From Chloroflexota bacterium (GTDB lineage Bacteria > Chloroflexota > UBA11872 > VXOZ01): a stretch of 64,000 nucleotides of DNA. The position numbers and the translations under genes are program-made. Of this stretch, positions 21,598-22,888 are shown in pieces; the stretch's first letter is position 1, and each line of letters opens with the position of its first letter. The notes beneath the pieces were generated by a model, which saw only the letters and a program-made list of their open reading frames with translations, did not search any database and was not told the DNA's origin. The stretch spans positions 1,280,001 through 1,344,000 of the forward strand of contig OZ244922.1 of NCBI GenBank assembly GCA_965221905.1, in the 5' to 3' direction.

Positions 21598-21724
21598 GTC
21601 TTCACGTCTTTCTAGCTGTTGAGTTAGGTAACCAAGTCTTTCATGTTACAAATTGAGGGCCTCGTTGCAGCCGTGATTCGCGCATCCGTTCATCCTTCGA
21701 CAGGCTCAGAAACTGTCTTGGGTG

Positions 21725-22660
21725 TCAAGGTGCGGTGGTTGGTTTCCAGGGCGACTGTGTATTGAGCATGCGGTTGAGGATGGTGAGCAGCTTGCGCATG
21801 CAGGCGGTAAGGGCCACTTTCTTGGGTTTGCCTGCGGCGCACAGTCGGTCATAGAAGATTTTGATCACCGGATTGAAGCGGGTTGCGACCAAGGTAGCCA
21901 TGTAGAGACTGGCGCGCACCGGGGCTCTGCCGCCCCAGACGCTGCGCTTGCCCCGGTAGGTGCCGCTATCCCGGTTGTGGGGAGCGACCCCCACCAGCGC
22001 GGCAATCTGCTTGCGATTGAGCCTGCCCAGTTCCGGGAGTTCTGCCAGCAAGCAGGTAGCCGTAACCGGGCCAATTCCCGGTACGCTGGACAGCAGGTTC
22101 TCACGGGCACGCCACAGCGGGCTGGTTTGGACGAGCGCCGCCAGTTCCTGGTCCAGGCTATCGAGTTGCCGCCGCAGCCAGGCAATGTGGGACTTGATCT
22201 GGGGACGAACCCGCTTGGTGGCCCGGGGCAGACGGTTGCACTCGGCAGTCAGCATCGCGACCACCTGCCGCCGCCGCGCTACCAAGCCCCGCAACTCCTG
22301 CGTCTGCGCGTCCGGCAGTGCGCGCGCCTCCGGTTGCACCGCTTCTCCAAAGCGCGCCAGCATGCCTGCATCTATCGCGTCCGTCTTCGCCAACCGTCCC
22401 GTGGCGCGCGCAAAGTCCCGCACCTGCCGCGGGTTCACGACCGTCACCTCCAGCCCCGCTGCCACTAACTCTCCTGCCACCGCGCTCTCCAGCCCACCCG
22501 TCGCTTCCAACACCACGCCCTGCGGCGCCAATGCAAGCAGACGCTCCCGCAGCTCCTCTATCCCTGCCGCATCGTTCCCAACCCACCACGACTGCGCTTC
22601 GTCAGCTACTCCCACGTCAAGCCGGTCTTGCGATACATCGATCCCCACGTACACTGCCAT
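21725..22660 (-). CDS. IS110-family recombinase (RuvC-like DEDD plus Tnp serine domain)
   Basis: YVGIDVS, VLEATG, KTDAIDA (DEDD), PGIG, RDSG serine loop, [15 protein letters not shown]. Confidence 0.95.
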
Positions 22661-22669
22661 TGCCTCCCT

Positions 22670-22845
22670 CCTGCTATACTATGGCTGGCGCTCCCATGCA
22701 GTCCCTGCCTTACGGATACGGACTTCGTGTCCCGGTAACTGTTCGGGCTCTGGGGGAGCTCGGCAGGTGTGGCGACCACTCTGAGCCACGGTCTGCCAGA
22801 CCTAGGACGAACCGGTCTGCCACGCCTGCTCCCATTCTATCTCCC
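22670..22845 (-). ncRNA. IS110 bridge RNA (target- and donor-binding loops); ends approximate
   Basis: Target loop: GUUCGUCCU (22812-22804), hairpin, GGCUCAG (22787-22781). Donor loop: ACAGUUAC (22742-22735), hairpin, GUAAG (22713-22709). Both loops are closed by stems. Confidence 0.85.
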
Positions 22846-22888
22846 TTTTCCAAGATATAAGGACGAACGGATGCTAATTGTATGGCGG

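Follow-up and report, generated by a model that had tools for sequence, protein, structure and literature searches.

How does an insertion sequence come to sit, copy after copy, at one and the same point of a repeated palindrome, and can that choice be read from the element itself? The question is raised by a locus in a 64,000-nucleotide (nt) stretch of a Chloroflexota genome (assembly GCA_965221905.1, contig OZ244922.1, positions 1,280,001 to 1,344,000; hereafter the window, whose own numbering is used below). On the minus strand of the window lies an IS110-group insertion sequence of 1152 bp, with one CT counted, set within a palindromic repeat. A preliminary description, made from the letters of the DNA alone, took it for an IS621-type element whose bridge RNA has guides that can be read directly and are programmed to a repetitive extragenic palindrome (REP). 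The explanation favoured here, with a probability of roughly 0.9, is that this is an intact, recently active IS110-group insertion sequence and that a bridge RNA guides its insertion into the palindromic repeat. The observations behind it are the family of the protein, the anatomy of the element, the conservation of the RNA fold, the covariation of the guides with the flanking DNA, the occupation of the same site by all six copies in the genome and the empty state of orthologous sites in related genomes.

Target guides and the fold of the predicted bridge RNA

Read on the minus strand, to which all features below belong unless otherwise stated, the left flank CCGTTCGTC (22870-22862) is followed by the left CT core (22861-22860), and the right CT core (21709-21708) is followed by the right flank GAGCCTG (21707-21701). 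The predicted target-binding loop (22763..22829), delimited by fold, covariance model and guide-flank covariation, holds a strand for each of these flanks. Its left target guide GUUCGUCCU (22812-22804) agrees at 9/9 positions with left flank plus core, and its right target guide GGCUCAG (22787-22781) is a 7/7 reverse complement of CTGAGCC. The two are separated by an inner hairpin, GGUCU-GGC-AGACC (22802-22790), present in the minimum free energy (MFE) fold, and are enclosed by an outer stem (22829-22813 with 22777-22763) on which MFE fold and covariance model agree. In none of 20000 dinucleotide shuffles of the left end do the 9-nt sense run and the 7-nt antisense run occur together; singly, they occur in 5 and 593 respectively. 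The polarity is that described for IS621, in which the 5′ side of the loop offers 8–9 nt toward the bottom strand and the 3′ side 4–7 nt toward the top strand (PMC11208160): here the 5′ strand of the loop reads as top-strand sense up to the core, and the 3′ strand is complementary from the core on.

When the target loop changes among relatives, the flanking DNA changes with it. In an 82%-identical relative (L008), the left guide is GUUCGCCCU, with U replaced by C, and the site is GTTCGCC-CT, with the corresponding T to C change. The element of genome G006 (78% identical, seven copies) has AGCUCAG as its right guide, and 7/7 of its insertions are at CT-GAGCT, the T-variant of the same repeat. 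A more extensive change is seen in the elements of G004, G003, G008 and G002:C9 (74–81% identical), which have the guides G(A/C)UGGCC-CU and GGGAG-AG and lie in a different repeat with the flanks ..GGCC-CT-CTCCC.., their ends, ACAGTTT-CT-TATATC, and donor loops being unchanged. Further away, the targets of L009, L010, L011, L047 and an Acidobacteriota group are all different, and in each case the loops of the element match its own target. A count at fixed register (54 rows examined, 43 of them distinct) gave, for the right guide against the right flank, a cognate mean of 4.58/5 (n=24; 18 at 5/5) as against 1.75 for non-cognate combinations (n=520; none at 5/5). For the left guide and left flank the means were 4.21/7 (n=28) and 2.66 (n=732). 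The decoding of the target guides in the preliminary description is borne out by the 9/9 and 7/7 matches, by the published strand rule and by this covariation.

The fold in which the guides are presented is likewise retained. As first drawn, the stem of the target loop, the hairpin inside it and the stems of the donor loop all recur in the MFE fold of the left end. A covariance-model search had also been proposed, and it was productive in one of its two forms. No bridge-RNA family of Rfam matched on the element strand, but a model built from this element and L008, with the structure of the preliminary description, found the RNA in relatives. In a first set (Chloroflexota, Burkholderiales, Planctomycetota, Acidobacteriota and Novosphingobium) it placed the RNA immediately 5′ of the recombinase gene at 27 loci, and in a second set, from other genomes of the same class, upstream of the recombinase in 27 of 29 loci. 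Standard pairs occupy 91.5% of the cells in the first set, compared with 30–42% when the partners are slid by 1–3 columns; changes on both sides are seen in 30 of the 36 pairs, and 0/500 shuffles reach any of these measures. One distinct row of the first-set alignment matches just the target-loop stem, and in antisense. The corresponding values for the second set are 93.4% as against 37–51% slid, with both-sided changes in 19/36 pairs. On the element strand there are 35 G-U cells as against 10 A-C cells, an excess which indicates that the RNA is on the strand of the gene and not on that of the Rfam sX15 match considered below. The two-loop architecture originally proposed, target loop and then donor loop upstream of the gene, is thus backed in both sets by compensatory changes. 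When RNAalifold was applied to a simple MAFFT alignment of entire left ends, the target loop came out poorly in the consensus, because the Acidobacteriota rows dominated and stems were out of register, and the covariance model was used in its place. The MAFFT alignment did reveal pairing of the right donor guide with the opening bases of the left end.

Six copies at one site of a palindromic repeat

Joined to each other, the two flanks of the element form an imperfect palindrome with a 15-bp stem (one pair being G-T) and an 11-nt loop, the CT core forming the final two bases of its 5′ arm. The left arm (GCATCCGTTCGTC) with the left CT core occupies 22860..22874, with positions 1–7 of the left target, GTTCGTC, at 22868-22862. 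The loop (GAGCCTGTCGA) and right arm (AGGATGAACGGATGC) occupy 21682..21707, with the right target GAGCC at 21707-21703; the full right flank, from the right CT to 21682, reads GAGCCTGTCGAAGGATGAACGGATGC.

The genome, a single contig of 3.52 Mb, has six copies of the element, 100% identical over its length. Their outer flanks all differ, so that they represent six separate insertions. All six lie between CCGTTCG(T/C)C-CT and GAGCCTGTCGAAGG, and the same arm stands beside each; the proposal that other copies should sit at the same position of the repeat therefore holds at 6/6, to the same CT of the same palindrome. Anchored on its loop, the palindrome is present in 358 copies, six of them occupied. 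At least 8 contiguous stem pairs close the 11-nt loop in 113 of the 358, and the median is 5, since many stems carry a mismatch. Four of the occupied sites are perfect for both target guides and two have one mismatch (GTTCGCC), while among the empty copies 9 are perfect for both, 45 have GTTCGCC and 41 GTTCGTG. Occupancy is accordingly 4/13 for perfect sites versus 2/345 for all others (Fisher p 1.5e-5).

What the site looked like before insertion can be seen in close relatives. The left flank of the window copy was compared with 16 other genomes of the genus and the sequence following the match was read (in G009 the flank matched and the sequence beyond it was left unread). In G003, where the flank is 98% identical, and in G015 and G010, the orthologous locus is an uninterrupted ..CCGTTCGTC-CT-GAGCCTGTCGAAGG.. 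with a single CT, the left arm running straight into the loop of the palindrome. These uninterrupted sites fix both the boundaries of the element and the reconstructed target. Elsewhere the spot varies: G005, G004, G002 and G013 lack the repeat there, G012, G016, G014 and G007 (L100, L102, L097 and L094) have the palindrome in the opposite orientation, and G008, G001, G006 and G011 have other repeat arrangements. The repeat has evidently been gained, lost or flipped between close relatives. A copy of the element listed at 100% identity (2073 vs 2082 bits) is present in one of these genomes, G005 (L007, L051), at a different copy of the repeat.

Is the repeat a REP? It is a short imperfect palindrome present in hundreds of copies, and the copy in the window lies between open reading frames (ORFs), 22889-24076 and 20773-21597. 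Copy number, palindromic shape and the shared site of the six insertions speak for the REP target initially named. An association with a REP-associated tyrosine transposase (RAYT) flanked by the same repeat was not found: the sole Y1_Tnp match above cut-off in the genome (G000:C1:3327899-3328216) has no copy of the repeat within ~2 kb. As no RAYT flanked by it was found, the target is here called REP-like rather than a proven REP of a REPtron.

Several other features of these repeats and their surroundings were seen. The Y1_Tnp gene just mentioned has several copies of a different GC-rich palindrome on both sides (~400 nt), an arrangement that is REPtron-like. In copy 5 of the element (G000:C1 ~2344700-2345870) and in L007 the palindrome belongs to a ~62-nt unit repeated head to tail, and the element is inside such an array. 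A second repeat family, ..CCTCACCC(C/T)(G/A)GCC-CT-CTCCC.., houses the sister elements L052, L055, L086, L056 and L087 of G004, G003, G008 and G002. The genome has a seventh IS110-type DEDD match (G000:C1:352624-352932; 37.9 bits); it contains two TGA codons in frame and belongs to a decayed element from a different lineage. In the window, both neighbouring ORFs are on the minus strand, so that the element shares their orientation. The REP-like repeat starts 15 nt past the stop codon of the upstream one, and an effect of the element on the downstream gene is possible.

The recombinase, the ends and the donor side

The recombinase gene (21725..22660; 311 codons for amino acids) was recognized from the ORF list, Pfam and alignment to solved structures. 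DEDD_Tnp_IS110 (PF01548) matches residues 5-147 of its product with 76.4 bits and Transposase_20 (PF02371) residues 188-270 with 70.4 bits. A search against solved structures aligned residues 4-305 by sequence with the ISCro4 transposase (9t56; E 1.6e-44), the best-scoring solved relative, and with that of IS621 (8wt6; E 2.4e-42). In the RuvC-like DEDD domain D8, E52, D94 and D97 stand opposite IS621 D11, E60, D102 and D105, and in the Tnp domain S232-G233 stands opposite S241-G242; the matching was counted through the 8wt6 alignment, whose chain numbering is two ahead of the native one. IS621 D11, E60, D102, D105 and S241 are the residues named as catalytic in PMC11208158. Four acidic DEDD residues and a Tnp serine followed by glycine, the hallmarks of IS110-group proteins, are therefore both present, and assignment to the IS110 recombinase family is secured by the two domains, the full-length alignments and retention of all five catalytic residues. 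The protein had been called compact: its length is indeed 311 aa, but that is just 15 aa below the 326 residues of IS621, a modest difference. An identical protein is found in a public collection, in a 13-member cluster of which no member has a name. The recombinase of the window can reasonably be regarded as a candidate programmable one.

Upstream of the gene is a non-coding left end (22661..22859) that starts TATATCTTGG, with TATAT from 22859, and is the predicted bridge-RNA gene. Its measured length is 199 nt, in place of the ~190 nt at first estimated. A Shine Dalgarno-like sequence, GGAGGGAGG, is directly 5′ of the recombinase ATG. The right end (21708..21728) terminates in ..AGACAGTTT-CT, 17 nt after the recombinase stop codon, and includes the left donor ACAGTTT (21716-21710), which the right CT core follows. 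A long non-coding left end, a short right end and the same CT on both sides in 6/6 copies are the anatomy of the IS110 group. The strings, loops, stems and guides quoted in the preliminary description were all found in place.

The predicted donor-binding loop (22690..22759), for which fold and covariance model again agree, has an outer stem of 22759-22754 with 22695-22690 and a second stem of 22752-22745 with 22705-22699. Within it the left donor guide ACAGUUAC (22742-22735) matches at 7/8, the mismatch being at donor position 7, a position that tolerated mismatches in the IS621 screen (PMC11208160). It is followed by the hairpin GGAC-ACGAA-GUCC (22732-22720) and the right donor guide GUAAG (22713-22709), which pairs with CTTAT by use of one G-T wobble. 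Among relatives, the fourth base of the left end and the second nucleotide of the right donor guide vary together, as GC in 20 sequences and AU in 2: left ends starting TATAT (those of this element and of L008) go with U in the guide, and those starting TGTAT with C. In L047 the left end TGCAT and the right donor guide GCAAG match perfectly.

There are also signs of the handshake guides described for IS621 (PMC11208158). Candidate nucleotides for this function are the AG after the right target guide (22780-22779) and the GC after the right donor guide (22708-22707). Read by eye, a T at donor position 7 is accompanied by A, and a G at that position by C, directly after the core-pairing AG of the target loop. 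In the donor loop the AG is followed by G, which faces the C of target position 7. Both nucleotides stand where handshake guides have been described in IS621.

For IS621 a promoter is described that forms at the junction of the joined ends, with its −35 in the right end and its −10 in the left end (PMC11208160, PMC11208158), and a counterpart is predicted here by analogy. TTGACA (21728-21723), a −35-like sequence overlapping the TGA stop codon (21727-21725), is 15 nt from the end of the element. TATCTT (22857-22852), −10-like, is 2 nt into the left end, and only upon joining of the ends would the two come together, as TTGACA-17 nt-TATCTT. At this distance of 15 nt from the element end, TTGAC(A/T/C) recurs in L008, L010, L011, the Acidobacteriota relatives and relatives within the genus. 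A scan of the integrated element gave 0 sigma-70-like promoters and 0 intrinsic terminators; a 2026 paper reports weak bridge-RNA expression from integrated copies.

Homology with IS621 suggests how these parts would act together, and it is from there that the circle, the use of the promoter, the RNA itself and the catalysis are taken. Excision as a circle would join the right end to the left end and so create a sigma-70 promoter. Transcription from ~22846 would then yield a bridge RNA of ~150–160 nt with two internal loops, to which the DEDD/serine recombinase would bind. With the target loop on GTTCGTC-CT-GAGCC, the 5′ strand (GUUCGUC+CU) would pair with the bottom strand and the 3′ strand (GGCUC+AG) with the top strand, and ACAGTTT-CT-TAT, where the ends of the circle meet, would be paired likewise with the donor loop. 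Insertion would follow from an exchange of strands at the CT core. As the target is the junction of 5′ arm and loop in a palindromic repeat of ~350 copies, the element would land between genes and always the same way round with respect to the repeat.

Alternatives, known relatives and significance

Several observations weigh against a guided, mobile element, or temper the evidence for one. The folding energy of the left end is ordinary (z -1.46), and the pair counts come from alignments made to fit the model, and this works in favour of the structure, a bias that the slid controls share only in part. Both donor-guide matches are present as had been described, though in this sequence alone they are within chance (13122 and 8028 of 20000 shuffles reach them by the exact-run measure), and it is the covariation in relatives that argues for them. 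The automated comparison of left guides is noisy, with 7/28 cognate rows scoring 0–2 of 7; most of these low scores come from one-base slips of the model register in the loop (L012, L015, L044 and L040), and L071 and L063 account for others. In these two (from G051 and G037) the left guides are truly mismatched (0/7), though the right guides match at 5/5 and 4/5. Their guide has ..GACCC where the left flank reads ..GAGG. That 9 perfect and 45 GTTCGCC sites are empty implies that occupancy cannot be predicted from the guide match alone. The only Rfam match in the region, to sX15 (RF02234; plus strand, 22683-22838, 43.9 bits, E 1.6e-05), is antisense to the element and below the 55-bit cut-off of the family. 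Assembled contigs of four public runs were also searched, and in DNA run X1 the element is collapsed to one 1169-bp contig with a depth of 546 as against ~100 for its flanks. Neither a circle junction nor an excision joint appeared in the contigs of the four runs. Those of the two RNA runs, which carry the label sponge metagenome, span 21724-22620 piecewise and leave 22661-22859 uncovered, but RNA contigs cannot show absence and carry no weight for or against expression or mobility.

Such observations invite other readings. The structured left end might be a regulatory leader, or one strand of an antisense small RNA pair of the sX15/asX7 type that controls transposase expression, its matches to the flanks being incidental. 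The sX15 match itself, the description of complementary sX15 and asX7 transcripts in Xanthomonas (PMC3300014) and the lack of a promoter in the scan of the integrated state are in keeping with this. It is nevertheless very unlikely: the sX15 score is under the cut-off and the G-U excess is on the element strand, while the recombinases to which the protein is homologous over its full length have been solved in complex with bridge RNAs. In many relatives the unpaired strands of the loops change with the flanking DNA while the stems are retained, which neither a leader nor an antisense role predicts. An antisense transcript could coexist with the guide function and would not replace it.

A different reading accepts the target but assigns its choice mainly to the protein, which would recognize the hairpin shape of the repeat, pairing of the RNA being secondary, as in the ‘dual-match’ logic proposed for ISPpu10. 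The 6/6 insertions here and the 7/7 of the G006 sister element are all at the arm-loop junction of a palindrome, a guide mismatch is tolerated in 2/6 insertions, and a 2026 preprint on an IS110 element reports additional specificity from a target stem-loop. As the main determinant of the site, however, shape is improbable, though structure may contribute. Sister elements with rewritten target loops are in a different repeat and distant relatives are in unrelated sequences matched by their own guides, so that it is pairing, and not one shape, that tracks the site; moreover, the copies of one palindrome differ greatly in occupancy according to whether the guide match is perfect, as given above. 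A last possibility, that the element spread formerly and is now an immobile fossil, could appeal to the 54 good sites standing empty and to the failure to see circle, excision joint or left-end RNA in the contigs. It is scarcely credible given six copies with no internal difference, an intact reading frame with its catalytic residues and the identical copy listed in G005 at another copy of the repeat. Also, the site in the window is empty in three members of the genus, and the 98% identity of one of their flanks points to a recent insertion. An active, RNA-guided element remains the explanation preferred here.

Among known systems the closest parallel is with IS621 of Escherichia coli (PMC11208160, PMC11208158). 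The two share both Pfam domains, the D-E-D-D and S-G residues, the CT core, a long left and a short right end, an RNA upstream of the gene with target loop before donor loop, the strand rule, similar guide lengths and the placing of a −35-like sequence in the right end and a −10-like one in the left. A mismatch at donor position 7, tolerated in IS621, and nucleotides in handshake position after the core-pairing AG are further points in common. They differ in host, which here is of a Chloroflexota lineage, in protein length and probably, as the preliminary description had it, in the repeat that is targeted. With ~17 nt before its target loop, the RNA of the present element also probably lacks a 5′ stem-loop. 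IS621 targets a REP. ISCro4 was compared by protein sequence alone: the likeness is full-length, with many substitutions in the alignment. ISPpu9 and ISPpu10 of Pseudomonas putida are similarly described as having multiple copies in a repeated extragenic palindrome or stem-loop (PMC12288879), but by that description ISPpu9 is set apart in having its RNA gene downstream of the transposase, in contrast to the upstream position here. The model of the Xanthomonadaceae small RNA sX15 spans both loops, and its consensus holds reverse complements of conserved donor-loop motifs; it differs in matching the strand opposite to that of the bridge RNA and in doing so below cut-off. Besides the complementary sX15 and asX7 transcripts of Xanthomonas, 10 sX15 homologues are described in Stenotrophomonas maltophilia (PMC3300014). 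It may be that asX7 is the bridge-RNA strand, and the sX15 family the antisense strand, of IS110 bridge-RNA loci.

The class to which the element was first assigned is a known one (Durrant et al. 2024 analysed 5,511 pairs of non-coding RNA and target; PMC11208160), and every sequence-level feature of an IS110-group bridge-RNA element is found in it. As far as can be read, it appears to work like IS621. It is a new example of a known system and leaves knowledge of the mechanism unchanged. Its value is as a cleanly decodable bridge-RNA element in a lineage far from the enterobacterial models, with exact boundaries, empty sites and sister elements whose target loops differ, and it could serve as a further orthologue in screens for programmable recombination.

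A more tentative thought, at present doubtful, is that the sister copies within the genus are a natural reprogramming series, in which donor loop and ends stay fixed and the target loop is rewritten stepwise, every version being at the arm-loop junction of a palindrome. The steps would be the U to C change (GTTCGCC), a G to A change (GAGCT) and wholesale replacement, for an unrelated repeat (..GGCC-CT-CTCCC..). If the hairpin is a second layer of recognition, read by the protein, the series would be a test set for the switching of bridge elements from one safe-harbour repeat to another. For the host genome, the element accounts for a 1.15-kb repeat present six times without differences, and it singles out a particular sub-variant of a repeat family as the landing pad of these copies.

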